Assembly: GCA_050251635.1 (NCBI GenBank)
Contig: JBFWML010000014.1
Location: 1-45,143 of the forward strand
DNA length: 45,143 nt
DNA from: Campylobacterales bacterium
GTDB lineage: Bacteria; Campylobacterota; Campylobacteria; Campylobacterales; SZUA-545
Reading direction: 5' to 3'
The notes under the pieces were generated by a model, which had not been told where the DNA came from, did not search any database, and was given only the letters and a program-made list of their open reading frames with translations. Each line of letters opens with the position of its first letter. Within the stretch, counting starts at the first letter, position 1. This document shows, in pieces, positions 123 to 27,837 of the stretch. The translations under genes were made by a program, and so were the position numbers.

Positions 123-1325
123 TTAGTGGGCCAGCGACTTAAACCAGCCAGTGGTGTCCAGCTGCTCCCACGGATAGCCCTTGAGGCCGACCTGCCCTTT
201 GGCTGCTACATCGGCGTAAAGGAAGGTGTTTTTAGAGGGCTTGTCCAGATTAAAGGTGCGGGTAATCCACATGGGGGTCAAGGGAAACTGCTTAGCCACC
301 GCGTCGCTGAGCATCTCATCGGTAATACCCGGTGCGGCGGTAAACTGCGTATCGACGCTCACCGAAGTGGGGCGCGCCACACCGATCGCGTAGCTGATCT
401 GAACGAGCGCCTTTTTAGCCAGTCCCGCAGCCACGATGTTTTTGGCGATCCAGCGGGCGGCATAAAGGCCGGAGCGGTCCACCTTGGTGTAGTCCTTAGA
501 AGACTGCGCGCCGCCGCCGATGGGGGCGTAACCGCCGAAGCTGTCCACGATCAGTTTGCGGCCCGTCAGGCCCGAATCGTGCAGCGGGCCGTGGTTAACG
601 TAGCGGCCGGTGGGGTTAATGTGGATAATGCAGTCGTTGGGATTGTAAAGATGGGCGGGCAATCCGGCGGTGTCGATCAGCCCTTTGATTAGCTTGCGCA
701 CTTCGTCGATGTGCAGTTTTTCTACGCTGGGGGCGGAGACAACGATGGTGTGAATCTTCTGGGGTTTGGCCTGAATAAAGTTCTCTTTGGTGCCGTAGTC
801 GATGGTGACTTGGGTTTTAATATCCACACCCAGCTCGTCGGAGTGGGCGAGGGCGTAGGCGTACACCTTGTCGCACAAAAGCCGCGCGTAGCTAATCGCT
901 GCGGGCATATACTCTTCGGCTTCGTCGCTGGCAAAACCGAACATAATGCCCTGATCCCCCGCGCCGATTTCGCCGCCCGCTTGATCAACGCCCTGATTGA
1001 TGTCGGGGGATTGTTTGTTGATATGCACGGCGATATGCAGATCGTCGGGGTGCAGTGTCTGGCAGCGGTCAAAACCGCACTGGCCGCCGTAACCGATTTT
1101 GCTCAAAGCCTCTTTGGCGATGCGTTTGTAATCGGCTTCGGTGATGTTGGCCTTGGTGGTCACTTCGCCGCCGATAAAGAGGTGTTTGCCTGCGATAAAC
1201 ACTTCGGACGCGACGCGGGAGTTGGGGTCCTGCATCAACAAAAAGTCCACAATGCTGTCGGCGACGATGTCCGCGCATTTATCGGGATGGCCGGGGCTGA
1301 CCGCTTCGGAAGTAAACAGATACAT
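123..1325 (-). CDS. metK: S-adenosylmethionine synthetase
   Basis: 400 aa; N-terminal GHPDKCADIVADSIVD, GGEVTTKA and GGGAFSGKD-like motifs typical of MetK. Last gene of the minus-strand operon, 6 nt after luxS. Confidence 0.95.
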   Translation of the reverse strand: MYLFTSEAVSPGHPDKCADIVADSIVDFLLMQDPNSRVASEVFIAGKHLFIGGEVTTKANITEADYKRIAKEALSKIGYGGQCGFDRCQTLHPDDLHIAVHINKQSPDINQGVDQAGGEIGAGDQGIMFGFASDEAEEYMPAAISYARLLCDKVYAYALAHSDELGVDIKTQVTIDYGTKENFIQAKPQKIHTIVVSAPSVEKLHIDEVRKLIKGLIDTAGLPAHLYNPNDCIIHINPTGRYVNHGPLHDSGLTGRKLIVDSFGGYAPIGGGAQSSKDYTKVDRSGLYAARWIAKNIVAAGLAKKALVQISYAIGVARPTSVSVDTQFTAAPGITDEMLSDAVAKQFPLTPMWITRTFNLDKPSKNTFLYADVAAKGQVGLKGYPWEQLDTTGWFKSLAH

Positions 1326-1331
1326 AGACGT

Positions 1332-1847
1332 TTAGCCTTTTTTGCTGAGTTTTTTCATAAGTTTAGGATCAAGGGCAATCTCTTCGTTATTCATCACGCC
1401 GATTCCCTTTTTGAGCACTTTGGTCGCGATTTTCTGCGCGTCTTCGAGGGAGTGCATTTTGTAGGTGCCGCACTGATACTCGTTCAGTTCGGGAATGTCG
1501 CTTTCGCTTTTAACCTTGAGAATATCGTTCATGCTCTTGGCCCACGCCTCGACGATGACCGACTCCTTGGGTTCGCCGATCAGGCTCATGTAAAAGCCGG
1601 TGCGGCAGCCCATGGGGGAGATGTCGATGACCTCGATCCCCTTGAGGTGATCGCGCATAAAACCCGCAAAGAGGTGTTCAAGGGTGTGGATGCCCTTGCC
1701 GCTCATCTTTTTTTTGTTGGGGGTGAAAAAACGCAGATCAAAAACGGTGATCTTGTCCCCCTTGGGGGTGCTCATCGTTTTGGCCTTGCGCACCGCGGGG
1801 CCGCGCATTTTGGTGTGATCGACGCAAAAACTATCCAGTAACGGCAT
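1332..1847 (-). CDS. luxS: S-ribosylhomocysteine lyase (AI-2 / DPD synthase)
   Basis: 171 aa, the canonical LuxS length. Metal-binding HTLEHL motif ([12 protein letters not shown]). Strong SD AAGGAGG 4 nt upstream of the ATG. Confidence 0.9.
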
Positions 1848-1873: not shown

Positions 1874-2248
1874 CTACTCAGGCTTCTTGAAAGGCTGGCC
1901 CGGTTTCCACTCAATGTAAACGCTGTCTTTTTCTTCGAAGTGGGGGGATTTAACGAAGACCGATTTAAAGGGCTTGTCGGTCACGTTGCGAAAGTAGTGC
2001 GCTTCGCCGGGGCCGCATTGCAGATACTCGCCCGCTTTCAGTACCACCAGCGTGCCGTTGACCCACACTTCGCATTCGCCTTCCAGCGCGTAAAAGGACT
2101 CCTCTTGCTTGACATGGGCGTGGCAGGGGTGCTCTTCGCCGGGCGTGATGATGACGACGCCGAAGTCGATGTTCGGGCCTTTGGCCAGATACTTCGGGCC
2201 GTGATCGCCGAAGCGGTATTCGTGATCGTTCTCGTGGGTTTTATACAC
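1874..2248 (-). CDS. cupin-domain protein (metal-binding HxH...E...H; candidate isomerase/dioxygenase)
   Basis: 124 aa. Cupin motif 1 [19 protein letters not shown] and motif 2 GPGEAHYF. Overlaps the lsrK-like gene by 8 nt. Confidence 0.65.
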
Positions 2249-3791
2249 CGGGGGCTCTCCATAGGGAATTGGTTAAACCCGCTTCGGTCAGTTTCAGTTG
2301 CGCGGCGTAAACAGCCTGCCAGCGCTCTTTAACTTCGCCGTAGAGGGCGTGGTTTTTTGCGTGCGGATCATACCGTTTTTCCCAGCGGATAAGCTGAGCG
2401 GACTCTTCTAAATTTTTCCACACGCCCGCGCCCACTCCGGCGGCAAAGGCGCAGGCCAGCGCGGTCGCCTCTTTCACGACCGGAACTTTCACCTGTTTGC
2501 CCGTCACATCGGCCAGAATCTGACTCCAGAGTTTACCCTTGGAGGCCCCGCCCGCAAAAACGACCTCGCCGCTAGCCGTGCCGGTTAGTTTTTCGACCTT
2601 TTGCAGGTTGATAGCACTCACGATCGCCGCGTTCTCCTGCAAGGCGCGGAACATTTCGGCTTTGCCGCAGCGGGCCGGATCGATGGAGAGGTTAATAAAC
2701 GAGGGCGCGGCGTGAATCCAGCGGCCGTAGTGCATCTCGTCCGAAAAGATCGGCAACACGCCGTTGGCTCCGGCGGGCACACGCTCCGCCATCTCCTCAA
2801 GCAGCGTATAAGGGTCGATCCCCCGCGCCTTGGCCTCGGCCACTTCGTTCTGGCACAGCGCGTCACGAAACCAGCGCATCACAAGGCCCGTAAAAAAGGT
2901 GATCCCTTCGGCCTGACTTTGGCCCGTGATGACATGGGGGTTAATGCGCAAATCCATAGCCGGATCGAGCAATGCGCCTTGGACGTTGACCAGTTGCTGC
3001 CAGAAAGTGCCGCCGAGCACCGCGCTTTGGCCGGGTTTAACCACCCCCAATCCCGCGCTGCCCAGTTGCACGTCGCCGCCGCCCATGACCACAAGTGTTC
3101 CGGCTTTCAGGCCGCACGCTTTGGCCGCCGCTTCGGTGACTTTTCCAATCACGCTTCCCGTTTCGGCCACTTGGGGCAGTAAAGAGCTTTTAATCCCCGC
3201 TTTTTCGGCCAGATCGGGCAGCCATGAGCGGGTTTTTAAAGACAAAAGCCCCGTGGTGCCGCCGTTGGACGGATCGACCGCGATTTCGCCGGAGAGTTTA
3301 AAGAGCGCCCAGTCGCTGATCATCGAGAGTTTATCGGCGGCTTCGTAGAGTTTCGGCTTATGGTTTTTTAGCCACAACAGCCGGGGTAGGGCGGCTAGGG
3401 CAAAGGTTTGACCGCTGGCCTCATACTGCTCTTTTTCCAGGGTCGGAAACTGTTTTTTGAGCGCCACAACCTCCGCGCAGGCGCGACCGTCCACGTTCGC
3501 CACCGCCCACAGCTCCTGACCGTTTTTGTCGTAAACCACAATCCCTTCGCGCATACTCGTCGCGCTGATCGCCAGAATTTTCGACGCATCCACGCTGCTG
3601 ATCGCCCTTTGAATGCAGCGGCATAACAGCGGCCAGTTGGCGGCGCAGTCAAACCCCATCGATCCGGGCACATCCGCTTCGGCAATGTGCATCCACTCCT
3701 CTTGGCCGATCGCAATCTGGTTGCCGTCGGTATCAAACAGTACGGCGCGGCCGCTGCCCGTTCCGGCATCGATGGCGAGTAGGTAATTCAT
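2241..3791 (-). CDS. lsrK: FGGY-family carbohydrate kinase, LsrK-like (autoinducer-2 / DPD kinase)
   Basis: 516 aa. Full-length resemblance to enteric LsrK: [16 protein letters not shown] at the N-terminus, [64 protein letters not shown]-terminal SLWRAPG. ATGA overlap with the upstream aldolase gene. Confidence 0.7.
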
Positions 3792-4948
3792 GCGGTTTTC
3801 CTTAGCTTGGCCTGTTCCAGCTCCCAGTATTCGATCTCAAAAAGCTCTTTTTCCCCCAAGGGTTGCCAGCCGCCCAGTTTTTCGGCCTGCAAAATCGCCC
3901 GGATCGTGTGTTCGGCAATATCGGCGACCGGTTTTAACCCTTTGGCGTCGGGCGAAAGGGCGAAAACGCCTTTGTTTTTGATGACCACCACGCGCGGGGT
4001 GGAGTCAAGCTTGATCTGATCGGTGGCGTGGCGGGCGAAATAGGCGTCGTATTCGCGCCGGTAGGCGGCAAAACTGCTTTCGATCCGGCTTTCGTCGCAC
4101 ACGAGATAAAGCCGTTTGGTGCGCAATACGTGTTCGGGGGTTAAACACCCTTTGGCGATCTTTTCCGCATTCGGCAGGGCGCAGAGGGCCGCCGCTTCGG
4201 GGGTTAACAGCGGTTTGACCGCGAAGTTTTCTCCGGCGGCCAGCCGAACCCGCTCGGCCAGCGAGGAATTTTCCGGCAGGGGTTTAGGCAGCGTTAGCAG
4301 CGCTTTTTCGTTCAGATAGGTTTCGGCCTTGGCGGAAAGCTCGATCATCTTGTCGTAGGCCGTTTTGGCGGAGTCGGCAAAGGTAAACAGGCCGTGGTTT
4401 AAAAGCACCACGCCTTCAAGATCGTTCCAGTCGATCGAGCGTGTGAGGTCACGGATGGTTTTAGCCAGAATAAATCCCGGCATCACATAGGGCACGATTA
4501 GCACCTTGGGGCCGAAAACCGCGCGCAGATGTTTTTCGCCTTCGGGCGCGGCGCTGAGCGCGGCCACCGCGTCGGCGTGGGTGTGGTCAACATAATCGAA
4601 GGGGATTAGCGCGTGCAAAATCGCCTCCACGCTGGGGTTGGGCGCGGACTTATCCAACATAGCCGCCTTTTGCGCCGCGACCATTTCGGTGTCGGTGAGG
4701 GTCTCGCGATCGGCCAGTTCCAACAGCGGAGCCAGTTTCACCGCCGGAAAACCGGGTTTTTCGATGCTGGCCAAATCCCAGCCACTGCCTTTGACATACA
4801 AAATACCGTCCACTTTAACGGAGGTATTGCCCCCGCCGTGAAGCACCAAGTCGGCATCGGCCCCCAACAGGCGGGAGGTGTAAACCCGTAAAGCGACGGG
4901 ATCGTTAGCAAATTGCGCAGCCTCGTGTTCGTTCCAGCGATTGATCAT
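3788..4948 (-). CDS. class II aldolase/adducin-family protein (long RhaD-like aldolase domain, without the fused short-chain dehydrogenase half)
   Basis: 386 aa. N-terminus [45 protein letters not shown] is characteristic of the N-terminal aldolase module of bifunctional rhamnulose-1-phosphate aldolase/alcohol dehydrogenases. Confidence 0.6.
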
Positions 4949-5644
4949 TTAAAGCCTTAATGCGTCGTGCCACTCGACCAGCGTGACGCGGTAACCGGCG
5001 CTCACGGGGTGGACGGTGTGGGCAAAGTAGGGATTGGAAGGGAAAGCAACCATCGTGCCTGCTTTGGGGGTGAGCATGAGCGTTTGGCCGTTTGCGTCTT
5101 TAAGAAAGTCGAAGGTCAGTTTTCCGCCTTCGAAGTCGTCGTTGAGAAACAAAACAGTGGTGATTTTGCGTTGCGTCGCCACCGGTTGCCAGCCGGAAAT
5201 TTCGCCCTTCTCATCCAGCAGAATGCTGCAATTGTCCGCGTGCATCCCGTAAAAGTCGCCGGGGCCGTAGCCTAAAACCTGCAAGCCCGAACCCTCCAGC
5301 AGCAGATGGTTGAAAAACCGTTCAATCTGCGGCTTTTGTTCTAAAAAAGCGGCGCGGTAGATCGCCTGCGAAGTTTCATCCAGACTCAGCCATGCGGTGC
5401 TGCGCAGATTTTTATCGACCCTTGCATGGGGGAGATTGGCCTCTTTAACCTCGGCAGGGACGATCCGGCGCGTTGCGAGCGCATCGGCATAAAGCGCGGC
5501 GCAGGTTTCGGGGGGTAAAAAACCGTCGATCAGCAAAAACGGGTAATCGGCAAAACCGTTGCCCATGAAACTCATCTGGGGCGGCACTTTGCCTTCCAGC
5601 GGCGCGGAGTCATAAAACGCAAGGCGCGAAATGGGGTTTAGCAT
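4949..5644 (-). CDS. 2OG-Fe(II) oxygenase superfamily protein (prolyl-4-hydroxylase-like, P4Hc)
   Basis: 231 aa. HxD...H triad candidates (MHADN ... HTVHPV). P4Hc-like R-x-T-x-L-x-LNDDFEGG-x-L-x-F segment. First gene of the operon, directly abutting the aldolase gene. Confidence 0.55.
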   Translation of the reverse strand: MLNPISRLAFYDSAPLEGKVPPQMSFMGNGFADYPFLLIDGFLPPETCAALYADALATRRIVPAEVKEANLPHARVDKNLRSTAWLSLDETSQAIYRAAFLEQKPQIERFFNHLLLEGSGLQVLGYGPGDFYGMHADNCSILLDEKGEISGWQPVATQRKITTVLFLNDDFEGGKLTFDFLKDANGQTLMLTPKAGTMVAFPSNPYFAHTVHPVSAGYRVTLVEWHDALRL

Positions 5645-5682
5645 ACGCGATTATAGTGCAAGCTTGCCGTGATTTTTCCGCG

Positions 5683-5688
5683 TTATAA
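5683..5688 (+). promoter_or_regulatory. perfect TATAAT -10 hexamer in the 72-bp divergent region, about 28 nt upstream of the binding-protein ATG
   Basis: gcgtTATAATgg. The -35 region is poor (AGCTTG at 17 bp, or TTGCCG at 14 bp). Confidence 0.3.
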
Positions 5689-5716
5689 TGGACGCACTTT
5701 GACAGGGAGGGGTCCC

Positions 5717-6625
5717 ATGAGAGTTATCTGGGTACTGCTGGCGGCGGCCATTGCGCTCTTGGGCGCTGAAGCTAAACGGTTTGTGGTGGGCTTTGCGCAG
5801 GATACGATGACCAACGACTGGCGCGTGGCGCAGGTGCGCGAGCTGGAAGCGGCCTTCAAAAACGACAAAAACATCGAGTTTGTTTACACCGACGGCAAGG
5901 GCAATCTGGCGCTTTCGGTGCAAAATATCGAAGAGCTGATCGCCCGTCCCGTGGATGTGCTGATCGCCAGTCCGCTGGACGCCAAGGCGATGACGCCGGT
6001 GATTGAAAGCGCCTACAAAAAAGGGATTCCCGTGGTGCTGCTTTCGCGCCGGATCGAGGGCGACGGATTTACCACCTTTATTCACCCCGAAAACCGCGAC
6101 ATCGCCAAGCAGGCGGCCCGGTACATCGCCAAAGAGCTGAAGGGCAAGGGCAAGATTTTTATTTTGCAGCACGTACCCACAACCACCCCGGCCATCCACC
6201 GCACCGAAGCGTTTTTTGCCGAGATCAAAAAATATCCCGGCCTTGAAGTGACGGGCATGAAGGTGGCCAACTCCCTGCGGGCCGACGCGATTAAGATGAC
6301 CGAAGAGGCACTGCGCGAAGGGTTGAAGTTTGACGCCGTTTACGCCCAAAGCGACAGCATGGCCGTCGGCGCGATTATGGCACTCAAGGCCGCCGGGGTT
6401 GACCCTAAACCGCTGGTGATTACGGGGATCGACTACATCTCCGAAGCCAGGGCGGCGATTGTGGCCGGGGAGCTGGATGCCAGCTTTACCTATCCGACCG
6501 CCGCAGCCGAGGGGGCCGAAGCGGTGCGCCGGATACTCAAGGGCCAAAAAGTGCCCAAAGAGCAGGTGATCGATTCAACCATGGTCACCCGCGAAAACGT
6601 CCGCAAGATTGAACCGATCTTTTGA
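5717..6625 (+). CDS. periplasmic sugar-binding protein, type I PBP fold (RbsB/LsrB/LuxP/TorT-like)
   Basis: Signal peptide MRVIWVLLAAAIALLGAEA. Start taken at the ATG at 5717, preceded by GGGAGGGG; the track ORF begins at 5669. Typical Peripla_BP segments. Stop overlaps the kinase start (ATGA). Confidence 0.75.
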   Translation: MRVIWVLLAAAIALLGAEAKRFVVGFAQDTMTNDWRVAQVRELEAAFKNDKNIEFVYTDGKGNLALSVQNIEELIARPVDVLIASPLDAKAMTPVIESAYKKGIPVVLLSRRIEGDGFTTFIHPENRDIAKQAARYIAKELKGKGKIFILQHVPTTTPAIHRTEAFFAEIKKYPGLEVTGMKVANSLRADAIKMTEEALREGLKFDAVYAQSDSMAVGAIMALKAAGVDPKPLVITGIDYISEARAAIVAGELDASFTYPTAAAEGAEAVRRILKGQKVPKEQVIDSTMVTRENVRKIEPIF

Positions 6626-8541
6626 TGCGCGCTCGACGGTTAACCCTTAAACAAAAGATGATCCTGCTGCCGCTGACTACGGCGGCGGCGGTGTTGCTGG
6701 CGGTGGGGATTTCGCTTTCGCTGTTTGTGGATCGCTACTACGGCGATATGTCTAAACGCAGCCTCGATCGGGCCGAGGCGAATTTGAATTCGGCTTTTTC
6801 GGCGGCGATGGCGCGGCTTGAGTCCGGCGCGGCGCGGCTGTCGCAGGTTGAGGAGCTGGTTGCAATGGCGGGGTTTATCAGCACCTACCAGCGAACCGAT
6901 GCCTACGAACCGTTGATTTTTGATGTGGAAAAAGAGAAAGTCGCCGATGATCTTGCCCGCCGGTTGACCCTTTCCGGTCACGATCTTGTGGCGATTTACG
7001 ATGCCGAAAACCGTTTGATTGCGGGCGTGCGAAAACGTCTGCGCGACGGCGAGGTGGTGCGCGTCTATGCCACCTACCGCGACCAAAAACCTCTTCTGCT
7101 GGAAAAAACGTCTCAAGGCTGGCAGCCTGCCGGCTTGATTGAGCGCTCGCTCTTTGAATCGCTTCCGCCGACCGCCATGAGCGAACTGGATGCGCAGCGG
7201 GGTTTTTATGTGCAGCGGCTCAAACCGCTGGTGCGGCCTTCGGGCCAGCGGGCGGGCACAATCCGGCTGGCCGATCGCCACGGCGCGCAGACGCTGGCTG
7301 CCATGGTGCGTTCGGAGCTGATTCATACCGGATACCTAACGGCGGGCAACACCATAGCCGGAGATTTTGACGAGGCGCTTTCCCCTGAAATTCGCGGCCA
7401 AATGGCGCTGCGCGAAGGGATGGGCTGGCTTGAAAGCGACGCCCATTTTTTAAAAAGCGTTGCATTGAACGTGGGGCCTGAAGAGTTTTTGCCCGTGGTG
7501 CTGGGGCTGGGAAAAACGATCTATCTCGATCAGCGCAATACGACGCTGTGGATACTCATAGGCGCGCTGGTGCTTTCGGCGCTGCTGGTGGTTCCCTTTG
7601 CGGCAAGGATTGCCAACCGATCGATCGCGCGGCCCGTAGACTGGCTGCTGGAAAAGACCGAAGCCATCAAGGCGGGTCATTATCAAAACCTGGAGCATGA
7701 CGCTTCAAACGATGAGATCGGGCGGCTTTCGCGGGCCTTTGACGCCATGGCCAAAGAGGTTCAGCAACGCGAATGGGAGCTGCAGGAGTACCGCGATCAT
7801 CTCGAACAGAAGGTGCAGGCCGAAATCGCCAAGCGCCAGGAGCAGGAACAGCTGCTGATTCGCCAGTCGAGACTGGCGGCGATGGGTGAAGCGATGAGTT
7901 CCATCGCCCACCATTGGCGTCAACCCCTCAACGCGCTGGCGGCCAATGTTCAGGACCTGCCCGATGCGCAAAAGCACGGCGAGATGACCGTGAACTATCT
8001 CAACCATGTGGTTGATAACTCCATGCGGCTTATCAACGAAATGTCCGGCACGATCGACGCCTTTAAAAACTTCTTTCGCCCCGACGGCAACCGGGTGGCC
8101 TTTTCGGTCAGTCAGGCGGTGCAGCGGACGCTAACGGTGCTTAGCCCCACCTTTACCAACAATCTGGTGACCGTGGAGACCTACTACGAAGACAATCCGC
8201 TGGTGGAGGGGTATCCCAACGAGTTCGCGCAGGTGATTTTACATCTGCTTTCCAACGCGGTTGATGCCATGCTGGAGCGCCAAAGCTCCGTGCGCCGTAT
8301 TTCGCTTTGGGTGGGCAAGGCCGAAAACGGAAAGGCCCGCGTCCAAATCTGCGACAGCGCGGGCGGCATCGATCCGGTGATGCTGGGCAAAATCTTTGAA
8401 CCCTACGTCTCCACCAAGCAAAAAAGCCACGGCAGCGGCGTCGGGCTTTATATGGCCAAGATGATTATCGAATGGAATATGCAAGGCACGATTACGGCAA
8501 GAAACGAAGGGGAGGGCGCCTGCTTTACGATCGAGGTTTAG
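6622..8541 (+). CDS. sensor histidine kinase: TM, about 270-aa periplasmic domain, TM, HAMP, coiled coil, HisKA, HATPase_c; no receiver domain
   Basis: 639 aa. Two hydrophobic segments (LLPLTTAAAVLLAVGISLSLFV; LWILIGALVLSALLVVPFA). H-box SIAHHWRQPLNAL. G-boxes DSAGGIDP and GSGVGLYMAKMIIE. Confidence 0.85.
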   Translation: MMRARRLTLKQKMILLPLTTAAAVLLAVGISLSLFVDRYYGDMSKRSLDRAEANLNSAFSAAMARLESGAARLSQVEELVAMAGFISTYQRTDAYEPLIFDVEKEKVADDLARRLTLSGHDLVAIYDAENRLIAGVRKRLRDGEVVRVYATYRDQKPLLLEKTSQGWQPAGLIERSLFESLPPTAMSELDAQRGFYVQRLKPLVRPSGQRAGTIRLADRHGAQTLAAMVRSELIHTGYLTAGNTIAGDFDEALSPEIRGQMALREGMGWLESDAHFLKSVALNVGPEEFLPVVLGLGKTIYLDQRNTTLWILIGALVLSALLVVPFAARIANRSIARPVDWLLEKTEAIKAGHYQNLEHDASNDEIGRLSRAFDAMAKEVQQREWELQEYRDHLEQKVQAEIAKRQEQEQLLIRQSRLAAMGEAMSSIAHHWRQPLNALAANVQDLPDAQKHGEMTVNYLNHVVDNSMRLINEMSGTIDAFKNFFRPDGNRVAFSVSQAVQRTLTVLSPTFTNNLVTVETYYEDNPLVEGYPNEFAQVILHLLSNAVDAMLERQSSVRRISLWVGKAENGKARVQICDSAGGIDPVMLGKIFEPYVSTKQKSHGSGVGLYMAKMIIEWNMQGTITARNEGEGACFTIEV

Positions 8542-8852
8542 CGGGTTTGCTCGTTTAGCCAGCGCAGATATTCGCTGCCGCCGCCGTCGGCTTCGAAAAA
8601 GATCAATTCGGGCAGATCGTAATCGTGGGTATCAACAAGGGCCCGCTTGAGCGTGTCGATCTGCGAGTGCGTTGTTTTGATAATCAGCAGGCATTCGCTG
8701 TCCTCGTGGAGTTTGCCCTGCCATTCGTAGATGCTGGTGACTTTGGGCACGATATTGACACACGCCGCCAGCCGATCGGCCACGAGAATCCTTGCCAGAC
8801 TTCGCGCCTGCGCTTCATTGGCGCAGGTGGTCAGCGCGACAATCGCCCTCAC
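8538..8852 (-). CDS. cutA: divalent-cation tolerance protein CutA
   Basis: 104 aa, CutA1 family. Characteristic IVPKVTSIYEWQGK ... LLIIKTT core. 4-nt overlap with argB. Confidence 0.8.
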   Translation of the reverse strand: MRAIVALTTCANEAQARSLARILVADRLAACVNIVPKVTSIYEWQGKLHEDSECLLIIKTTHSQIDTLKRALVDTHDYDLPELIFFEADGGGSEYLRWLNEQTR

Positions 8853-10391: not shown

Positions 10392-10869
10392 ACACCGGCC
10401 CCTCGGGGCGCAGAGTGCTTTTATAAAGTTTCCACGGCCCGGCGCATTCGCCCAGCGGTTTGTCGCGCCATTCGCCCAGGGCTTCGTTGAATCGATCGGG
10501 CTCTTTAAATACCTTTGGGCGCATCAGGGTGACATGGGGCGAAAAGGGTTTGTCGCTCACAATCCCCAGCCGATCGCGCACGGTTTTTTCCAGCGTTTTA
10601 AGCTCCGGCGTCAAGGCGCAGCGGGCAAAAAAAACGTTCACCGGACGGCCAAAACTCCCCGCGCCCGCCAGCGTCAGCGGCCCGGCGGGAAAGGTTACAT
10701 CCCCAAGCCGCTCAATCACCCGCTGCGGCGCGTGGGCTTCGCCAATAAAAATCAGCGTCAAATGTAAATTTTGCGGCGGCGTCCAGCGCCCCTTGAGGCA
10801 AGGATTAAACGCCGCTTGCAGGGCGGGATAGTTGTGGAGCGCGGCGCTTCGGCCGATAAAAAGTCTCAC
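10369..10869 (-). CDS. thpR: RNA 2',3'-cyclic phosphodiesterase (ThpR/LigT, 2H phosphoesterase)
   Basis: 166 aa. Starts MRLF with a GTG start overlapping the vapC stop (GTGA). Two H-x-T-x motifs (HLTLIF and HVTLMR). Confidence 0.8.
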   Translation of the reverse strand: MRLFIGRSAALHNYPALQAAFNPCLKGRWTPPQNLHLTLIFIGEAHAPQRVIERLGDVTFPAGPLTLAGAGSFGRPVNVFFARCALTPELKTLEKTVRDRLGIVSDKPFSPHVTLMRPKVFKEPDRFNEALGEWRDKPLGECAGPWKLYKSTLRPEGPVYEVLHAF

Positions 10870-11243
10870 GGCTTAAAAACCCGCAAATTGAGTTCCTGTA
10901 GATAGTCGAAGTGTTTGCGGTTGGCGCTGCACAAGGGCAGGTTGTGTTCGATCGCGGTGGCGGCAATAACGGCGTCGCCCGCCCGCAGGCCGTGCGAAAG
11001 TGCAAACTCTTCCACATACACCGCTGCCCGCTGGCCGATGGCCCCGCTAAGCGGCAGGGTGGAGAAGTTCATCTCCTTCAAAAACGACCGCACGGTTTTA
11101 TGCTGGTTTTTGTTCTGCGCCGCCTGCAAAAGCTCCATATAAGTGTAAATGGAAATACAGGGTTCCGCGCAGTCGTCAATAAGTTTTGCCGCTTCACGGT
11201 TGCCGCGCTGAACCCAGATTAAGACATCGGTATCAAACAACAT
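10866..11243 (-). CDS. vapC: type II toxin VapC (PIN-domain ribonuclease)
   Basis: 125 aa. N-terminal MLFDTDVLI with the PIN acidic residues. 11-nt overlap with the upstream antitoxin gene. Confidence 0.8.
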   Translation of the reverse strand: MLFDTDVLIWVQRGNREAAKLIDDCAEPCISIYTYMELLQAAQNKNQHKTVRSFLKEMNFSTLPLSGAIGQRAAVYVEEFALSHGLRAGDAVIAATAIEHNLPLCSANRKHFDYLQELNLRVFKP

Positions 11244-11475
11244 GAACGCGCCCGCTTCGCAGTTTTTCCATCACGCTTTCGACGCTTTCGGCTTCGTCTT
11301 GATACATGCCAAAAAAAGGGTGCTCGGCGGCGCTCTTGCGCGTCTTTTTGGGCGCGGCAGGTTCGATCGAGCCTTTTAGAACGCCGCGATAGAAGATTTC
11401 AACCTTCTCGTTACGGTCAAGCGCACGGATAATCTCTTTGGTTTTATAACGCAGATCGACCACGCTGGCTTCCAC
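11233..11475 (-). CDS. vapB: type II antitoxin, Phd/YefM-like
   Basis: 80 aa. Small, directly upstream of and overlapping vapC. N-terminal segment resembles Phd/YefM antitoxins. Confidence 0.55.
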   Translation of the reverse strand: MEASVVDLRYKTKEIIRALDRNEKVEIFYRGVLKGSIEPAAPKKTRKSAAEHPFFGMYQDEAESVESVMEKLRSGRVHVV

Positions 11476-13383: not shown

Positions 13384-14211
13384 TCAAAAATCGCAGACGG
13401 TGCCTTCGTAATCGCTCAGCGCCTCAATGCCGTGCTCCCCGCAGACGCGGCATTTGGGGTTCTTTTTGAACCGCACTTTTCTAAAATCCATCGTTTTGGC
13501 GTCAAAATGCAGCATCTGATCGCTCAATGCGTCGCCCGTGCCGATCAGGTATTTAAGCGCCTCGGCAGCCTGAATGGTGCCCAGCATTCCCGCCACCGCG
13601 CCCAAAATACCCGCCGTGGCGCAGGTGGGGACGCTTTCAGCGGGGGGCGGCGAATCGAACACGCAGGCGTAACAGGCGCTTTTATGGGGCAGCACCGTCA
13701 TGGTTTGCCCCGTAAAACGCAAAATCCCGCCGTGGGAGTAGGGTTTGTTTGCCAGTACGCAGGCATCGTTGATCAAAAACTTGGCGGCAAAGTTGTCGGT
13801 GCCGTCGATGACGAAGTCGTAGTTTTTCACCAACGCCAGCAGGTTGCTTGCATTCACGGCCATCACGTGGGGTTCGATGACAATGTGCGGGTTCAAGGCC
13901 CGCATCGACTCCGCCGCCGAAAGCGCCTTGGGCGTGCCGGTGCGGGCCTCAGTGTGGATGACCTGCCGTTGCAGGTTGCTCGGCTCCACCACATCGTGAT
14001 CCACAATGCCGATGCGCCCGACCCCGGCGGCGGCCAGATAGAGCGCCACCGGACTGCCCAAACCCCCCGCGCCGATAATCAGAACGCTGGAGTCCAGCAG
14101 TTTGGACTGCCCCTCGGCCCCCACGCCCTCTAGAATGATGTGGCGGGCGTAGCGTTCGTATTCGTCGTCGGTGAGTTCTCGCACGGGAAATCCTCTTTTG
14201 GTTTGCGCCAT
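13384..14211 (-). CDS. moeB: ThiF/MoeB-family E1-like adenylyltransferase with two C-terminal CxxC pairs
   Basis: 275 aa. Nucleotide-binding GAGGLGS. CYAC ... CRVC zinc motif. 10 nt upstream of mnmA on the same strand. Confidence 0.75.
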   Translation of the reverse strand: MAQTKRGFPVRELTDDEYERYARHIILEGVGAEGQSKLLDSSVLIIGAGGLGSPVALYLAAAGVGRIGIVDHDVVEPSNLQRQVIHTEARTGTPKALSAAESMRALNPHIVIEPHVMAVNASNLLALVKNYDFVIDGTDNFAAKFLINDACVLANKPYSHGGILRFTGQTMTVLPHKSACYACVFDSPPPAESVPTCATAGILGAVAGMLGTIQAAEALKYLIGTGDALSDQMLHFDAKTMDFRKVRFKKNPKCRVCGEHGIEALSDYEGTVCDF

Positions 14212-14265
14212 TCTAACGTCTTTGGGCCGAAAGTTTAATCGAAGGCAAAAATAATGTCAAGTATC

Positions 14266-14294
14266 TTGACAAAGATAATAAACTATTTTAGAAT
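14266..14294 (+). promoter_or_regulatory. sigma70-type promoter for the Rrf2 regulator and cysK
   Basis: TTGACA (14266-14271), 17-bp spacer, TAGAAT (14289-14294). A second possible -10 TATACT at 14351-14356. Confidence 0.45.
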
Positions 14295-14404
14295 TTCACC
14301 GGATTCAATGTTGACCGTGCAACCTGAGATTGTGCTAAGCATCTCTCTCCTATACTGGATGTTTTTAAATCTCTAGTATAAAGCTAAACAATACAGGGGG
14401 AGCG

Positions 14405-14818
14405 ATGGTTTGCGTTTCGTCCAAGGGAGCCTACGGTCTGGCGGCCATGCTGTATCTGGCCCAAAACCGCGATCGGCTGGTGCAGATTAAAGACATTGCC
14501 AAAAGCGGAGACATCCCGCAAAACTACCTCGAACAGTTGCTCGTTCAGCTGAAAAAGGCGGGTTTTGTCGAAAGTATCCGCGGGGCGCGGGGCGGCTACC
14601 GTCTGGCGGCCGATCCCAAAGAGTTGACGGTGTTTCAGATTCTGGGCGCACTGGAGGGCGATTTGGTCAATTGTGACAAATACACCACCGCCAGCCGGAC
14701 GCTGAACCACTTTTGGGCCGAAACCAGCCGCAAGGTTGAGCAGGCTTTTGAGGTTTCGCTTCAGGAGCTGGTCGATAGAAGCCTGAAGCTCGACGAAGCC
14801 GTGATGTACCATATTTGA
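14405..14818 (+). CDS. Rrf2-family transcriptional regulator (CymR/IscR-like)
   Basis: 137 aa. N-terminal Rrf2 winged-helix signature [17 protein letters not shown] ... [32 protein letters not shown]. Immediately upstream of cysK. Confidence 0.8.
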
Positions 14819-14828
14819 AAGGCGAACG

Positions 14829-15749
14829 ATGAAGATTGCCAACAACGTAACCGAGCTGATCGGCAACACGCCGCTGGTGCGGCTAAACCGCGTGGTTCCC
14901 GCCGGTATCCATGTGCTGGGCAAGTGCGAATTTATGAACCCGACCCACTCGGTCAAAGACCGCATCGGTTACAGCATGATCAACGACGCCGTTGCCAAAG
15001 GGCAGATTACGCCGGGCAAAACGGTTATTATCGAACCCACCAGCGGCAACACGGGCATTGCGCTGGCGAGCGTCTGCGCCGGGCTGGGGATTGAGCTGAT
15101 CCTTACGATGCCCAGCTCCATGAGCGTCGAACGCCAGCGGGTGTTGCGGGCCTTGGGCGCCAAGATTGAGCTGACGGCACCGGAACTGGGTATGCGCGGC
15201 GCGGTCGAAAAGGCCGAAGAGCTGCAGCGGGCCAATAAAAACGCCATCATTTTGCAGCAGTTTCAAAACCCCGCCAACCCCGACATTCACCGCAAAACCA
15301 CCGCCGAAGAGATTTGGCGCGATACCGACGGCACGGTCGATATTTTCGTAGCGGCGGTCGGTACGGGCGGCACGTTGACCGGCACGGGTGAGGCGCTCAA
15401 GGCCAAAAACCCGGCCATTGAAATCATTGCCGTCGAACCGGCCGATTCGGCGGTTTTAAGCGGCGGAAACCCCTGCCCGCACAAAATTCAGGGCATCGGC
15501 GCGGGCTTTGTGCCCAAGGTGCTCAACACCAAGCTCTACAAAGAGGTGGTGCAGGTCAGCAACGATGCGGCGATCGAGATGGCCCGCCGCTTGGCCCGGG
15601 AAGAGGGGCTTTTGGTGGGCATCTCCGCCGGGGCCAATGTTCAGGCGGCGATCGAGGTGGCCGCCCGCCCCGAAAACCGGGGCAAAACCGTCGTGACTGT
15701 CCTGTGCGACACGGGCGAACGGTATCTCAGTTCGGGACTTTTTGATTAA
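14829..15749 (+). CDS. cysK: cysteine synthase A (O-acetylserine sulfhydrylase)
   Basis: 306 aa. PLP-lysine motif PTHSVKDR. Glycine-rich [10 protein letters not shown]. Confidence 0.9.
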
Positions 15750-15755
15750 ATTTCT

Positions 15756-15775
15756 GCCCCAAAGGGGCAAGCTTT
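15756..15775 (+). terminator. weak hairpin (GCCCC-aaa-GGGGC) after cysK, followed by AAGCTTT
   Basis: 5-bp GC stem and 3-nt loop. Poor U-tract, so terminator function is uncertain. Confidence 0.25.
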
Positions 15776-15840
15776 AGTGGCCATAGCGGCCCAAGCGTAG
15801 CCGTAGGGGGCTTTGCTCCCTGCGGCGGATAAGGAAAAAA

Positions 15841-17064
15841 ATGAACGGCTTTACGACCAAGGCGCTCCACGCCCCCCGGCCCAAGGCTGACCCCTTCGGC
15901 GCGCTTCGCATGGCCGTGTACGACAACGCGGCCTTCGAGTTTGAAAGCGCCGAGGCGATCGAGGCGACTTTTACGGGCCAAAAACCCGGCCACACCTACA
16001 CCCGCGCCTCCAACCCCACCGTCGAAGAGCTTGAAAACAAAGTCAAACTCCTCAGCGGCGCGCACGGCGTAATCGCCACCGCCAGCGGCATGGCGGCGAT
16101 CACCACGGCGATCTTCGCGCTGGTGCGAAGCGGCGAAAATATCGTTACCACCGATCGGCTTTTTGGACACACCCTGTCGTTTTTCAAAAAAACCGCCAAA
16201 AATCTGGGGATCGAAACCCGTTTTGTGGATGTGCTCGATCCGGCGGCGGTCGCCAAGGCGTGCGACGCAAAAACCCGCGTCATTTTCTTTGAAACCATTA
16301 GCAATCCGCAGCTTCAGGTGGCCGACGCGGCGGCTCTAAGTGCCGTGGCCCGCGAAAAAAACGCGGTACTCATGGCCGACACCACCATGACGCCGATCTA
16401 CCTGTTCGACGCCAAAAAACACGGGGTGGACGTGGAGGTGATTTCGGCCACCAAATACATCTCCGGCGGCGGCACGACGATCGGCGGGCTTATCCTTGAC
16501 CACGGCCTGTTTGATTGGGGCAAGCTGGACGCATTGCGCCCCCATTTTGAAAAGGCCGGGCAAAACGCGCTGATCGCAAAACTCAAAAAAGAGGTGTACC
16601 GCAACCTCGGCCCCGCGCTCAGTCCGCACAACGCCTATTTGCAAAGTCTGGGGCTGGAAACGATGGCGCTAAGAATCGAACGAAGCTGCCAAAACGCGCT
16701 GGAGCTGGCCAAGTGGCTGGGCGAGCAACCGCAGGTAAAAACGGTGAACTACCCCGGCTTGGAAAGTTCGCCCTTTTGCGCGGCGGCCAAAAAACAGTTC
16801 CGCCACGCCGGAGCGATTCTAACCTTTGATCTGGCAAGCAAAGAGGCGATCTACCGCTTTATGAACGCCCTAAAACTGGTGCGCCGCGCCACAAACATCA
16901 ACGACAACAAAAGCCTGATCATCGCGCCCTACCACACGATCTACGCCGAAAACAGCCCCGAAGAGCGCCTCGCGTTTGACGTGCGGCCCACAATGCTGCG
17001 CCTATCGGTGGGGATTGAGGATATTGAGGATTTAAAAGCGGATATTTCGCAAGCCTTGGCATGA
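15841..17064 (+). CDS. metY: O-acetylhomoserine aminocarboxypropyltransferase / sulfhydrylase (Cys/Met-metabolism PLP enzyme)
   Basis: 407 aa. Cys_Met_Meta_PP family layout. PLP-lysine region VEVISATKYISGGG. Confidence 0.8.
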   Translation: MNGFTTKALHAPRPKADPFGALRMAVYDNAAFEFESAEAIEATFTGQKPGHTYTRASNPTVEELENKVKLLSGAHGVIATASGMAAITTAIFALVRSGENIVTTDRLFGHTLSFFKKTAKNLGIETRFVDVLDPAAVAKACDAKTRVIFFETISNPQLQVADAAALSAVAREKNAVLMADTTMTPIYLFDAKKHGVDVEVISATKYISGGGTTIGGLILDHGLFDWGKLDALRPHFEKAGQNALIAKLKKEVYRNLGPALSPHNAYLQSLGLETMALRIERSCQNALELAKWLGEQPQVKTVNYPGLESSPFCAAAKKQFRHAGAILTFDLASKEAIYRFMNALKLVRRATNINDNKSLIIAPYHTIYAENSPEERLAFDVRPTMLRLSVGIEDIEDLKADISQALA

Positions 17065-17462
17065 CCCAAACGCACGAAATTTCCATCCAAACCCGCGCTC
17101 GATCGGAGATGATCAACATCACCGCGCAGGTTCAGCGGTTTGTCGCCGAGGCGGGCGCGCAAAACGGCGTGGTGACGCTTTTTGTGCCCCACACCACCGC
17201 CGCGATTACCATCAACGAAAACGCCGACCCTGACGTGGTGCGCGATATGACCGGGTTTATGGACGCTCTGGTGCCAAACGACCCGGCCTTCCGCCATGCC
17301 GAAGGCAATAGCGACAGCCATATCAAAACCAGCCTCTTTGGCCCCAGTTTGCAGGTGATTGTTAAAGAGGGCCGATTGTGGCTGGGTACTTGGCAGGGCA
17401 TTTACTTCTGCGAGTTCGACGGCCCGCGCAGCCGCAGGCTTTATATGGCGCTGACGGTATAA
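17061..17462 (+). CDS. YjbQ/UPF0047 family protein (secondary thiamine-phosphate synthase-like)
   Basis: 133 aa. Conserved VPHTTAAITINENADPDV and TWQGIYFCEFDGPR segments. ATGA overlap with metY. Confidence 0.8.
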   Translation: MTQTHEISIQTRARSEMINITAQVQRFVAEAGAQNGVVTLFVPHTTAAITINENADPDVVRDMTGFMDALVPNDPAFRHAEGNSDSHIKTSLFGPSLQVIVKEGRLWLGTWQGIYFCEFDGPRSRRLYMALTV

Positions 17463-17492
17463 TCCCGCCCATTTAACCGAAGCGATTTTTCT

Positions 17493-18383
17493 ATGCTAAC
17501 TCCCCTCATTCCCGTTGCCGTTTTGTTTGCCGCCGGGGCGCTTTTTCGCCGTTATAAGGGCGACTTGTCCGTACCGCTCGTTGAAGTGGTCATCTTTATC
17601 ATTTTCCCCGCCTTTGTGTTTAAAACCGTCTGGGCGCTGGAATTGGGCGCGGAGACTTTGCGCGTGGGCGTGATGGCGCTTTTTTCCGTGGCGCTGGGCG
17701 GCGTGTTGGGTTATGCGATCGGGCGGGTGTTTAAGCTCTCGCGCGGCACCACGGCGACGATGATGCTACTCGGCGCGCTGGGAAACACCTCGTTTTTGGG
17801 TTTTCCCTTTGTGGATGCCTATTGGGGGGATGCGGGGCTGGCCCATGCGGTGATTTTTGATCAGATCGCCACGATGCCGATGCTGGTTTTGTACGGCACG
17901 ATCGTCGCGGCGTGGGGAAGCGGATCGTCGGTCAACGCGCTGCAGATACTCTGGCGGATTTTGGCTTTTCCGCCCTTTATCGCGCTGGTGTTGGGGCTTT
18001 TGTTTAACGGGATGCCGTTACCCGATCCGCTGATTGCCACACTGGAAAAGATTGGCTCAGCACTGCTGCCCGTGATTTTGTTGGCGGTGGGGATGAAGTT
18101 CACCCTCTCGGCCCTGCGCGGAAACGCCCGCAACCTGACGCTGCTGCTGGGCATTAAAATGGTGGCTTTGCCGATCGGCGTGGCGCTGATCGCCTTGGTT
18201 TGGGGTGGTTGGGATTTGGCCGCTCAGGTGAGTATTGTCGAAGCGGCCATGCCGCCGATGGTGCTGGCTTCTGTGATGGCCATGCGGCAAAATCTGGACT
18301 CCGATCTGGCGGTGGCGGGGCTGGGGTTTGGGATGATTGCTTCCTTTGCGATCATCCCGCTGATTTATGCGGTGGTGGGTTAA
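17493..18383 (+). CDS. AEC-family transporter (auxin-efflux-carrier / malate permease family)
   Basis: 296 aa, about 10 predicted TM helices, typical AEC length. Confidence 0.75.
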   Translation: MLTPLIPVAVLFAAGALFRRYKGDLSVPLVEVVIFIIFPAFVFKTVWALELGAETLRVGVMALFSVALGGVLGYAIGRVFKLSRGTTATMMLLGALGNTSFLGFPFVDAYWGDAGLAHAVIFDQIATMPMLVLYGTIVAAWGSGSSVNALQILWRILAFPPFIALVLGLLFNGMPLPDPLIATLEKIGSALLPVILLAVGMKFTLSALRGNARNLTLLLGIKMVALPIGVALIALVWGGWDLAAQVSIVEAAMPPMVLASVMAMRQNLDSDLAVAGLGFGMIASFAIIPLIYAVVG

Positions 18384-19222
18384 CGCAGCAGCAAAAGCGG
18401 CTTTTGGGTTTGGGCGATCATCTTGGCGGTAAAACTGCCCAAAAGCGCATCCCTAAAGCGGTTGTGGCTAAAGGCGCCCATCACCGTAAAGTCGATATCG
18501 TGGGCGTTTTGGTAGCTTAACAGCCCGCCGATCGCGTCGCCCTCCACGGTGGCTAAAACCGCGTCGATTCCGCCCGCTTTTAGCACCTCGCCTGCGCGAT
18601 CGAGCAGTTTTTGCGAGTCCGCTTTGGCGCTGCTTGCGTGAACCACATGGCAGTCGAGCTGTTTAAACAGCGGCGCGGTCGCCATCATTTCCAGCGCCTT
18701 TTCGCTTGCAGCCGATCCATCGTAGGCTAGCATCGCTTTTTTGGGCTGCGTAAAGGCTTGGCTGACTAAAAAGATCGGCTTATGCAGAGAGCGGATCACC
18801 TCTTCGATCTGGCCGCCGATCTTGTGGCTCTCTTCGCCGCGAAGCCCCAGCACCAGCACGCGCATCTGATCTTGCAGCTCGATCAGGTTTTCATACGGCG
18901 GGCCGTGGCGCTGGGAAAGCTGTGCCTCTACGCCCATCTTGGCCGCGCAGGTTCTGGCCGCTTCCAGCGCCGCTTTGCCCTTGGCTAGAAGCGTTTTGCT
19001 CTCTTCGCGCTCCTCTTCGGTCAGGCTTTCAAGCAATTCGTCGCGCGCGCCCAGACCGATATTGCCGCTTAAGTCCGTCGGCGCAGGCTTGCTGTGGTGT
19101 TCGACCGCGTGGATAAACTTGAGCGGTTTGCCGATGGTTTGGGCGATCCATGCGGCGTACTCGGCCACCGCGCAGCTTAGTTCCGATCCGTCCACGCAGC
19201 CCAAGACGGTGTTGTTTTGCAT
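18380..19222 (-). CDS. universal stress protein, tandem UspA domains
   Basis: 280 aa. Two Usp modules (VLGCVDGSELS ... and VLVLGLRGE ...). Confidence 0.8.
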   Translation of the reverse strand: MQNNTVLGCVDGSELSCAVAEYAAWIAQTIGKPLKFIHAVEHHSKPAPTDLSGNIGLGARDELLESLTEEEREESKTLLAKGKAALEAARTCAAKMGVEAQLSQRHGPPYENLIELQDQMRVLVLGLRGEESHKIGGQIEEVIRSLHKPIFLVSQAFTQPKKAMLAYDGSAASEKALEMMATAPLFKQLDCHVVHASSAKADSQKLLDRAGEVLKAGGIDAVLATVEGDAIGGLLSYQNAHDIDFTVMGAFSHNRFRDALLGSFTAKMIAQTQKPLLLLR

Positions 19223-27795: not shown

Positions 27796-27808
27796 CCTTT
27801 GTTAGAAT
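27796..27808 (+). promoter_or_regulatory. extended -10-like element CCTTTGTTAGAAT (TGn-TAGAAT) upstream of the REC-REC-PP2C gene
   Basis: The identical 13-mer recurs at 42338-42350 upstream of the aldehyde dehydrogenase gene. It implies the true CDS start is downstream of the track ORF start. Confidence 0.3.
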
Positions 27809-27837
27809 CTTTCTCAATAAAAACGGTGGGGGGCTCT

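Follow-up and report, generated by a model that had tools for sequence, protein, structure and literature searches.

A conserved two-gene sensor, built like Vibrio LuxP-LuxQ, that pairs a periplasmic binding protein with a membrane histidine kinase beside luxS and lsrK in a Campylobacterales bacterium

Several described receptors combine a periplasmic binding protein with a signalling protein in the membrane. In the LuxP-LuxQ system of Vibrio the gene for the binding protein is co-transcribed with that of the membrane kinase LuxQ, a hybrid kinase with a tandem-PAS periplasmic domain and a C-terminal receiver. The gene of the type I binding protein TorT also adjoins that of a membrane kinase, and TorT controls this hybrid kinase, TorS, which has a helical (HBM-like) sensor. 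In the hybrid two-component protein BT1754 of Bacteroides thetaiotaomicron (PDB 2x7x) the binding-protein domain is fused to the kinase and serves signalling, not transport. NspS-MbaA is an SBP-controlled c-di-GMP enzyme in which NspS is PotD-like. According to a review, the genes of SBPs that stimulate kinases adjoin signalling genes, and SBP-controlled c-di-GMP enzymes are listed there as a class (PMC8050422).

The window, i.e. the 45,143 nucleotides of contig JBFWML010000014.1 that were analysed, contained a gene pair for a periplasmic binding protein (PBP) of sugar type and for a membrane histidine kinase (Table 1). The pair is genuine and constitutes a two-gene sensor that is conserved in many species and resembles Vibrio LuxP-LuxQ in its construction. 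The reading frame of the PBP opens with a GTG at position 5669, and the gene had been placed from there in an earlier sequence-only reading of this DNA; the likely start was moved to the ATG at 5717, which has GGGAGG ahead of it and a Sec signal peptide after it. The overlap of the PBP stop with the kinase start was borne out, although its sequence is not ATGA as previously given. The junction reads TGATG, with the stop codon TGA at 6623-6625 and the start codon ATG at 6625-6627, and the overlap is 1 nt. The same junction was also kept in the relatives L002 and L003.

Table 1. Features of the gene pair and of the adjoining intergenic region in the window.
Feature	Position	Strand	Basis or remark
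Periplasmic binding protein (PBP), type I, Peripla_BP_4, 302 aa	5717-6625	+	Pfam PF13407, E 3.4e-46
PBP Sec signal peptide, residues 1-19, MRVIWVLLAAAIALLGAEA followed by K	5717-5773	+	
Predicted PBP pocket residues: N33, W35, R36, S110, R111, R162, S186, S212, D239, Y259			
Membrane sensor histidine kinase, 638 aa, without receiver domain	6625-8541	+	Start codon has one base in common with PBP stop
TM1, about residues 13-35	6661-6729	+	
Periplasmic double-Cache-like sensor domain (predicted), about residues 36-305	6730-7539	+	Flanked by TM1 and TM2
Sole strongly conserved sensor stretch, Y88-x3-Y-x-P-x-I-F-D100-x-E-K-x2-L-A	6886-6945	+	77 partner proteins
TM2, about residues 306-329	7540-7611	+	
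HAMP, residues 331-380, then coiled-coil signalling helix	7615-7764	+	Pfam PF00672, E 4.8e-6
DHp and catalytic core	7822-8535	+	NCBIfam AtoS, 117 bits over residues 400-636; PDB ZraS, E 2.5e-12
H-box SIAHHWRQPL, predicted phospho-acceptor His429	7909-7911 (His429)	+	
HATPase_c, residues 531-637	8215-8535	+	Pfam, E 3.6e-17
Divergent promoter region, 72 bp	5645-5716	.	Sequence
TATAAT -10 box for PBP-kinase operon	5685-5690	+	Invariant in alignment with relatives
TATAAT -10 box for oxygenase-...-luxS-metK operon	5655-5650	-	Invariant in alignment with relatives

The domain layout of the kinase agreed with the earlier description (a large periplasmic domain between two TM helices, HAMP, HATPase and no receiver) except for HisKA, whose Pfam match was below significance; the DHp domain is supported instead by the matches of AtoS/ZraS type. 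Pfam detected no Response_reg domain in the protein. Only four full-length homologues of the kinase were found among 5.8 billion proteins, and the region of HAMP and signalling helix was nearly invariant among the four. The periplasmic domain was modelled from these four sequences as an alpha/beta double-Cache fold, with LuxQ among the structural matches, though not the best of them. The predicted fold of the sensor is thus like that of LuxQ and not like that of TorS. It gave no Pfam match up to E 10, including LuxQ-periplasm and dCache_1, and no NCBIfam family; in the sensor of a relative dCache_1 reached E 0.047 and 13.7 bits, against a cut-off of 45. With no dCache_1 match, the window sensor falls outside the dCache_1 AI-2 receptors of the PctA type, which carry R126, W128, Y144, D146 and D173 (PMC7584622). 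A search of a word-indexed protein database with the sensor only returned zero matches despite the presence of a 99% identical protein, which is a limit of the indexing; an exhaustive profile search succeeded. The divergent kinase allele is not explained by positive selection, as dN/dS was 0.13-0.25 at dS above 1.

An AF2 model of the PBP had a pLDDT of 96. Comparison by profile or structure with LuxP, LsrB, TorT and RbsB had been suggested earlier, and the nearest relatives turned out to be the BT1754 sensor domain and RbsB, with LsrB, LuxP and TorT weaker. The fructose sensor domain of BT1754 was the best PDB match by sequence (E 2.7e-40), profile (1e-57) and Foldseek (TM 0.86), at 33% identity and with the motifs D-W-R, R-x-E-G-F, G-I-D and F-x-Y-P-T common to both. 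Whereas that domain is fused to its kinase, the PBP is secreted as a protein of its own and would have to dock on the double-Cache domain. In hhalign comparisons of the PBP family RbsB, which has the same fold and belongs to the same family, gave an E value of 1e-22, LsrB one of 3e-7 and LuxP one of 1e-5, and TorT was the weakest match with a probability of 68%.

Of the two architectures named in the sequence-only reading, that of LuxP/LuxQ was retained, since the PBP gene is predicted to be co-transcribed with the gene of a membrane kinase whose periplasmic domain is modelled as a double-Cache. The locus nevertheless differs from LuxP/LuxQ in the lack of a C-terminal receiver and of a Pfam LuxQ-periplasm match, and in a sensor module that in other species also drives GGDEF-EAL or HD-GYP proteins. 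The likeness to TorT/TorS was given up: it is limited to a type I PBP gene adjoining that of a membrane kinase, whereas the sensor here is predicted to be alpha/beta rather than helical and the kinase has no receiver. No tor genes occur in the window.

The pairing of PBP and sensor goes far beyond chance. In 71 of 80 loci from other GTDB species the gene immediately downstream of a PBP orthologue encoded a membrane protein that shares the sensor domain, and in four more such a protein was encoded within 3.5 kb; the remaining five loci, mostly of Arcobacter type, had the PBP without the sensor. Gaps between the two genes were 0-30 nt, or the genes overlapped, and the gene order was kept despite differing outputs. 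These were GGDEF-EAL in 35 cases, GGDEF alone in one, a kinase in at least 27 and HD-GYP in one, and hybrid kinases also occurred. PBP and sensor form a conserved module of two genes whose outputs are interchangeable. In the one example that was traced the other way, from the sensor, the PBP likewise lay upstream. Altogether 168 loci with the module were detected in GTDB species genomes. In most other species it is wired to a GGDEF-EAL protein, which resembles NspS-MbaA, although the PBP is like RbsB and BT1754 and not PotD-like, and the copy in the window has a kinase output. The PBP orthologues had a median identity of 55%, compared with 18% for the fast-evolving sensor domain. In the 77 partner proteins Y88 was conserved in 99% and D100 in 96%, and the remainder of the domain was about 18% identical.

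A permease of the RbsC/LsrC type (CUT2) was found neither in the window nor in any of the 87 loci analysed, and a role of the PBP in transport was rejected because no permease is nearby. Sugar transporter or sugar catabolic genes adjoined none of the modules. The pair is thus an SBP linked to a signalling gene and not to a transporter, in a conserved arrangement, as is general for SBP-dependent membrane sensors. PBP-coupled sensors are so far a handful of studied cases; the module described here appears uncharacterised and is widespread, with a sensor that has no Pfam model and a nearly invariant PBP pocket. Once its ligand is found, hundreds of sensors could be annotated in one step, in gradient bacteria of environmental importance.

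The pair is a binding-protein-dependent two-component sensor that probably works like LuxP-LuxQ; the docking of the two proteins, the direction in which it acts on the kinase, the class of ligand and the partner regulator are what we infer. The PBP would be exported via its Sec signal peptide and close around a small ligand resembling a sugar or polyol, in a pocket that hardly varies within the family. It would then dock on the membrane-distal part of the double-Cache domain, for which the conserved Y88...IFD100-EK motif is the candidate surface. This contact could be passed on through TM2, HAMP and the signalling helix and switch autophosphorylation at His429, from which the phosphoryl group would go to a response regulator encoded elsewhere. 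The AtoS/ZraS-like DHp domain hints at a partner of NtrC type. That no cognate response regulator is encoded in the window, as had been stated, applies to the adjacent genes only; the window also encodes a REC-PP2C protein at 27799-29307. As a gene with a receiver domain occurred within 1.5 kb of the module in only seven loci, adjacency gave no clue to the partner.

The conservation of the pocket was determined for 40 family members. Seven of the ten positions were invariant and the other three were kept in 80-85% of the members. Six positions (W35, R36, R111, R162, D239 and Y259) were identical to BT1754, and the four changes (D to N33, D to S110, W to S186 and N to S212) argue for a ligand other than fructose. 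Compared with RbsB, four of ten ribose contacts were identical (the equivalents of N13, R90, R141 and D215) and six were changed. The ligand probably is a conserved molecule that resembles a sugar or polyol but is neither ribose nor fructose itself. A simple role in nutrient sensing, with one of these common monosaccharides as the ligand and the PBP as a detached version of the BT1754 sensor domain, would agree with the six shared positions and with the top rank of BT1754 by sequence, profile and structure. It is nonetheless unlikely, given the differences in the pocket from both proteins, a score of the PBP in the RbsB equivalog model of 100 bits against a cut-off of 337, and the lack of rbsAC-type genes here and of sugar transport or catabolic genes beside any module. 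Many of the host taxa (Rhodocyclales, sulfur oxidisers, Arcobacter) are, moreover, probably poor sugar users. The BT1754 domain itself binds monomeric fructose (PMC3404733).

Upstream of the pair a divergent operon of six genes encodes, in this order, a 2OG-Fe(II) oxygenase, a class II aldolase, LsrK, a cupin, LuxS and MetK, and the gap of 72 bp reported earlier was correct. From this position a DPD-derived ligand such as AI-2 had been put forward as a leading candidate for the PBP; the pair might then monitor AI-2 outside the cell and could also act back on the luxS/lsrK operon. The neighbourhood has points in favour of this: the two operons are arranged back to back with conserved -10 boxes, lsrK is a true orthologue by its score with the NCBIfam AI-2 kinase model (855 bits; cut-off 528), and luxS adjoins the module in all four members of the clade, even where the kinases are only about 50% identical. 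The PBP belongs to the furanose-binding lineage of RbsB and BT1754, and its pocket may be roomier after three changes from a large residue to Ser.

The residues of the known AI-2 receptors were, however, largely missing. LuxP contacts S-THMF-borate through residues that we take to be Q77, S79, W82, N159, R215, T266, W289 and R310, and of these eight only R215 is kept in the PBP, as R162, a generic Arg common to RbsB; R310 aligns to Y259. The LuxP sequence used was checked against 1ZHH, and the letters agreed at all eight positions. LsrB-type receptors are defined by conserved K35, D116, D166, Q167, P220 and A222 together with more than 63% identity to LsrB of S. Typhimurium (PMC3386761). These six residues align to D29, S110, P158, A159, Q211 and D213 of the PBP, hence none is present, and the identity to E. 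coli LsrB, used as a stand-in, was 17% over the part aligned by hhalign. The likeness to LsrB thus consists of the type I fold and the nearby lsrK orthologue; lsrACD, lsrR, lsrF and lsrG are absent from the window, which gave no LsrA or LsrC match.

The distribution of the module also speaks against AI-2. Only in the clade of the window was luxS found within 8 kb of the module, and the pocket hardly varies among more than 70 species in which neither luxS nor lsrK lies close to the module. Two syntenic relatives, L001 and L002, lack lsrK and indeed the entire aldolase-lsrK-cupin cassette, and none of 80 metagenome loci of the aldolase-lsrK type contained the module. Because synteny with the clade relatives covers the entire region, to the left as well as to the right, adjacency to luxS/lsrK is not specific evidence, and the position is best read as clade-specific synteny rather than functional coupling. 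As luxS is adjacent across the whole clade, a local functional tie between it and the module may exist. The proposal of a DPD-derived ligand was consequently not supported and must be regarded as quite improbable, even though Epsilonproteobacteria carry luxS without LuxP or LsrB (PMC2561040) and new types of AI-2 receptor without known motifs are still turning up (PMC7584622). For AI-2 the result is mainly a caution, namely that adjacency to luxS/lsrK is here not evidence of AI-2 sensing. A broader version, which we consider highly speculative and less probable again, is that the conserved orphan PBP family constitutes an unrecognised class of receptors whose signal is AI-2 or a related compound of DPD or furanosyl origin. 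A fast-evolving double-Cache adaptor would connect these receptors with kinases in Campylobacterota and, in Rhodocyclales, sulfur oxidisers and magnetotactic bacteria, with c-di-GMP enzymes, and the window would keep an ancestral luxS link.

Least probable is that the two proteins do not signal jointly, i.e. that the PBP works for an ABC importer encoded at another locus or is a bystander to a kinase sensing its ligand via the double-Cache pocket; most characterised double-Cache domains in the structural match list do bind small ligands directly and a few loci have the PBP without the sensor, but the gene order is kept in 71 of 80 species with minimal spacing and differing output domains, no CUT2 permease is near any locus, and the pocket regions of the sensor are unconserved as opposed to the highly conserved PBP.

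Rfam produced zero matches in the entire window, and a generic sigma-70 scan detected no full -35/-10 site between the divergent genes. The -10 boxes were identified through the alignment with L001, L002 and L003, in which both were invariant and the remaining spacer had diverged.

The binding protein (PBP) and the kinase were encoded on the same strand (see the table). The likely PBP start was ATG 5717, which was preceded by a GGGAGG Shine-Dalgarno sequence and followed by a Sec signal peptide. The PBP stop codon (TGA 6623-6625) and the kinase start codon (ATG 6625) had one base in common, so that the overlap described in the sequence-only reading was present, but the junction read TGATG rather than ATGA. 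The kinase (638 aa) had the anatomy ascribed to it earlier, with about 270 periplasmic residues bracketed by two hydrophobic segments, followed by HAMP and HATPase_c domains; a domain search of the whole protein found no receiver domain.

Features of the window and domains of the studied kinase
Feature	Position	Strand	Remarks
metK	123-1325	-	divergent operon
luxS	1332-1847	-	divergent operon
lsrK cassette region	1874-4948	-	lsrK between class II aldolase and small cupin
TATAAT box	5655-5650	-	spacer
PBP ORF	5669-6625	+	type I periplasmic binding protein; Pfam Peripla_BP_4, E 3e-46
Kinase	6625-8541	+	
Kinase HAMP	residues 331-380	+	domain search
Kinase HATPase_c	residues 531-637	+	domain search
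PIN-domain protein	10866-11243	-	
Small ORF	11233-11475	-	upstream of and overlapping PIN-domain gene
Sulfur/amino-acid genes	13384-20715		ThiF-family protein, PALP cysteine-synthase-like protein, Cys/Met-metabolism PLP enzyme, SulP/STAS permease
Small soluble kinase	20792-21772	-	HisKA/HATPase; domain search
REC-PP2C (SpoIIE) phosphatase	27799-29307	+	sole receiver-domain gene of the window

Full-length homologues of the kinase numbered four in 5.8 billion proteins, and PBP relatives at 50-68% identity numbered hundreds. When one genome was scanned for each GTDB species, 168 PBP loci were obtained, and the best 80 were analysed for a downstream partner. In 71 of these 80 loci a membrane protein was encoded directly downstream of the PBP on the same strand, usually with a gap of 0-30 nt, and its N-terminal periplasmic domain and the window's sensor domain (kinase residues 36-305) were of one family. 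Four further loci had a sensor-family protein within 3.5 kb of the PBP, not immediately adjacent, and five had none near it. In a reverse check of one sensor-side match, a PBP gene was also located just upstream. The output was GGDEF-EAL at 35 loci, a histidine kinase or hybrid kinase at at least 27, and GGDEF alone or HD-GYP at one locus each. Across the gene pairs the PBPs were 48-67% identical to that of the window (median, 55%) and the sensor domains 10-24% (median, 18%), with sensor conservation concentrated in the motif Y88-x3-Y-x-P-x-IFD100-x-EK. A conserved detector, a plastic adaptor and swappable outputs are the pattern expected of a PBP-dependent sensor. The PBP gene lies next to a signalling gene, in agreement with a published rule for SBPs that stimulate kinases (PMC8050422). 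The module is apparently a new, uncharacterised family within a known kind, the SBP-dependent membrane sensors; no description of it was found in full-text literature searches.

No Pfam match to the sensor domain was found. Its confident model (pLDDT 83) comprised a long helix and then two alpha/beta modules, a LuxQ-like fold, without special closeness to LuxQ, and not a TorS-like one. For the PBP (model pLDDT 96), sequence, profile and Foldseek comparisons agreed on BT1754, a Bacteroides hybrid kinase, whose fructose-binding periplasmic domain (2x7x) was the best match, followed by ribose-binding proteins. LuxP, LsrB and TorT were absent from the top 50 structural matches. With the PBP family profile as the query, hhalign gave E values of 1e-22 for RbsB, 3e-7 for LsrB, 1e-5 for LuxP and 5e-5 for TorT. 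The proposed likeness to TorT/TorS was not supported for either protein.

The pair is quite likely a LuxPQ-style sensor, in which the PBP would dock on the double-Cache domain of the kinase and control phosphorylation. The PBP would close on its ligand and dock on a membrane-distal helix-loop motif of this domain. This contact would be transmitted through TM2 and on through HAMP and the signalling helix, toggling phosphorylation of His429. The signal would then go to an unlinked regulator, possibly of the NtrC type because the kinase DHp domain (H-box SIAH429HWRQPL) is AtoS/ZraS-like. A cognate response regulator had been reported as missing from the window. A receiver gene does exist, that of the REC-PP2C protein. 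Besides the studied kinase, the window's two-component parts are just this protein and the soluble kinase, and neither is obviously its partner.

A plain nutrient sensor for fructose or ribose, although in line with the best PBP matches, is doubtful, since the pocket, compared at the ten positions that correspond to ribose contacts in RbsB, was identical to BT1754 at six and to RbsB at four. Three of the ten carried Ser instead of Asp, Trp/Phe and Asn. Among 40 family members seven positions were invariant, and the other three were held by 80-85%. A pocket conserved in the family yet different from those of RbsB and BT1754 points to what is probably one specific ligand, a sugar- or polyol-like molecule other than ribose and fructose. 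Efforts to identify a ligand would be well spent on the family-level module and its invariant pocket.

AI-2 or a DPD-derived molecule, favoured earlier from the adjacent luxS/lsrK genes, is an improbable ligand. The LuxP sequence used for residue mapping was verified, and of its eight contact residues the PBP kept only a generic Arg (LuxP R215, PBP R162). LuxP R310, the second borate-binding Arg, aligned with Y259. None of the six LsrB signature residues (PMC3386761) was kept, the aligned PBP residues being D29, S110, P158, A159, Q211 and D213.

Homologues of luxS, metK, cutA and argB were found near the PBP only in the window's clade (loci L001, L002, which shares its contig with L040, and L003), where the whole region was syntenic on both sides. 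The aldolase-lsrK-cupin cassette was present in the window and L003 only; L001 and L002 had the PBP-kinase pair and luxS without it. In 80 metagenome loci with LsrK relatives (58-63% identity), neither the PBP nor the sensor was encoded. The two gene sets thus travel independently, and their adjacency in the window is best explained as inherited synteny. The AI-2 angle behind the original finding loses its support. Sulfur and amino-acid genes cluster close to metK and luxS, in keeping with a setting for luxS in metabolism rather than in signalling. That PBP and kinase are functionally uncoupled, or that the Cache domain senses directly, is very improbable given the PBP-sensor order kept in 71 loci and the lack of a CUT2-type permease in any locus analysed and in the window.

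As noted earlier, 72 bp separated the PBP-kinase pair from the divergent operon, which was tightly packed and encoded a 2OG-Fe(II) oxygenase, a class II aldolase, LsrK (855 bits; cut-off, 528), a cupin, LuxS and MetK. In an alignment with relatives, the conserved elements of the spacer were two TATAAT boxes, one per direction. The minus-strand box lay only 5 nt ahead of the annotated oxygenase start codon (5644); either the operon mRNA lacks a leader or translation truly begins at a codon further downstream. L001 and L002 carried a 23-nt insertion around window positions 5642-5660. The cassette aldolase corresponded to RhaD-like aldolase/SDR proteins in their N-terminal half, and lsrACDB, lsrR, lsrF and lsrG were not found beside the window's lsrK, itself a bona fide lsrK. 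Among the 80 metagenome loci the same class II aldolase adjoined lsrK in 45, some also with metK, cupin or luxS, and only two had a canonical lsr operon. The location beside metK and luxS and the recurrence without the Lsr importer suggest that the cassette is a cytoplasmic disposal route for LuxS-made DPD; it may represent a pathway not yet described that salvages DPD or P-DPD in the cytoplasm and is linked to the activated methyl cycle.

Window positions 6500-8750 were compared with L003 (9880-12120), a nearly identical strain. Flanking genes were 93-100% identical at the protein level (MetK, 99%; ArgB, 100%), and the kinase was 71% identical overall and 61% in the sensor, across which nucleotide identity dropped to about 61%. 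The dS was 1.1-1.4 at the sensor versus 0.13-0.38 in the flanks. The kinase allele looks as if it was replaced by a divergent one through recombination; positive selection was rejected as the cause, since this dS and a sensor dN/dS of 0.13-0.25 point to allele replacement. The cutA gene was also divergent (78%). The window PBP shared 67% identity with the PBP of an unrelated MAG, tcs-49, and 51-53% with those of the syntenic L001 and L002, and the sensor domain was 30-32% identical to the syntenic relatives and 18% to tcs-49. Judged from these identities, the histories of PBP and kinase disagree (tree incongruence).

The window's species had no representative in the GTDB scan, in which the best PBP match was 67% identical. 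The window derives from an uncultured member of the Campylobacterota: it encoded CiaD-like and DUF2393 proteins, which are Campylobacterota markers, and relatives were labelled Epsilonproteobacteria MAGs. Its own sequence was present in a metagenome assembly. The G+C content was 53-59%, which is unusually high for Campylobacterota. The PIN-domain gene and its overlapping ORF are likely a toxin-antitoxin pair.
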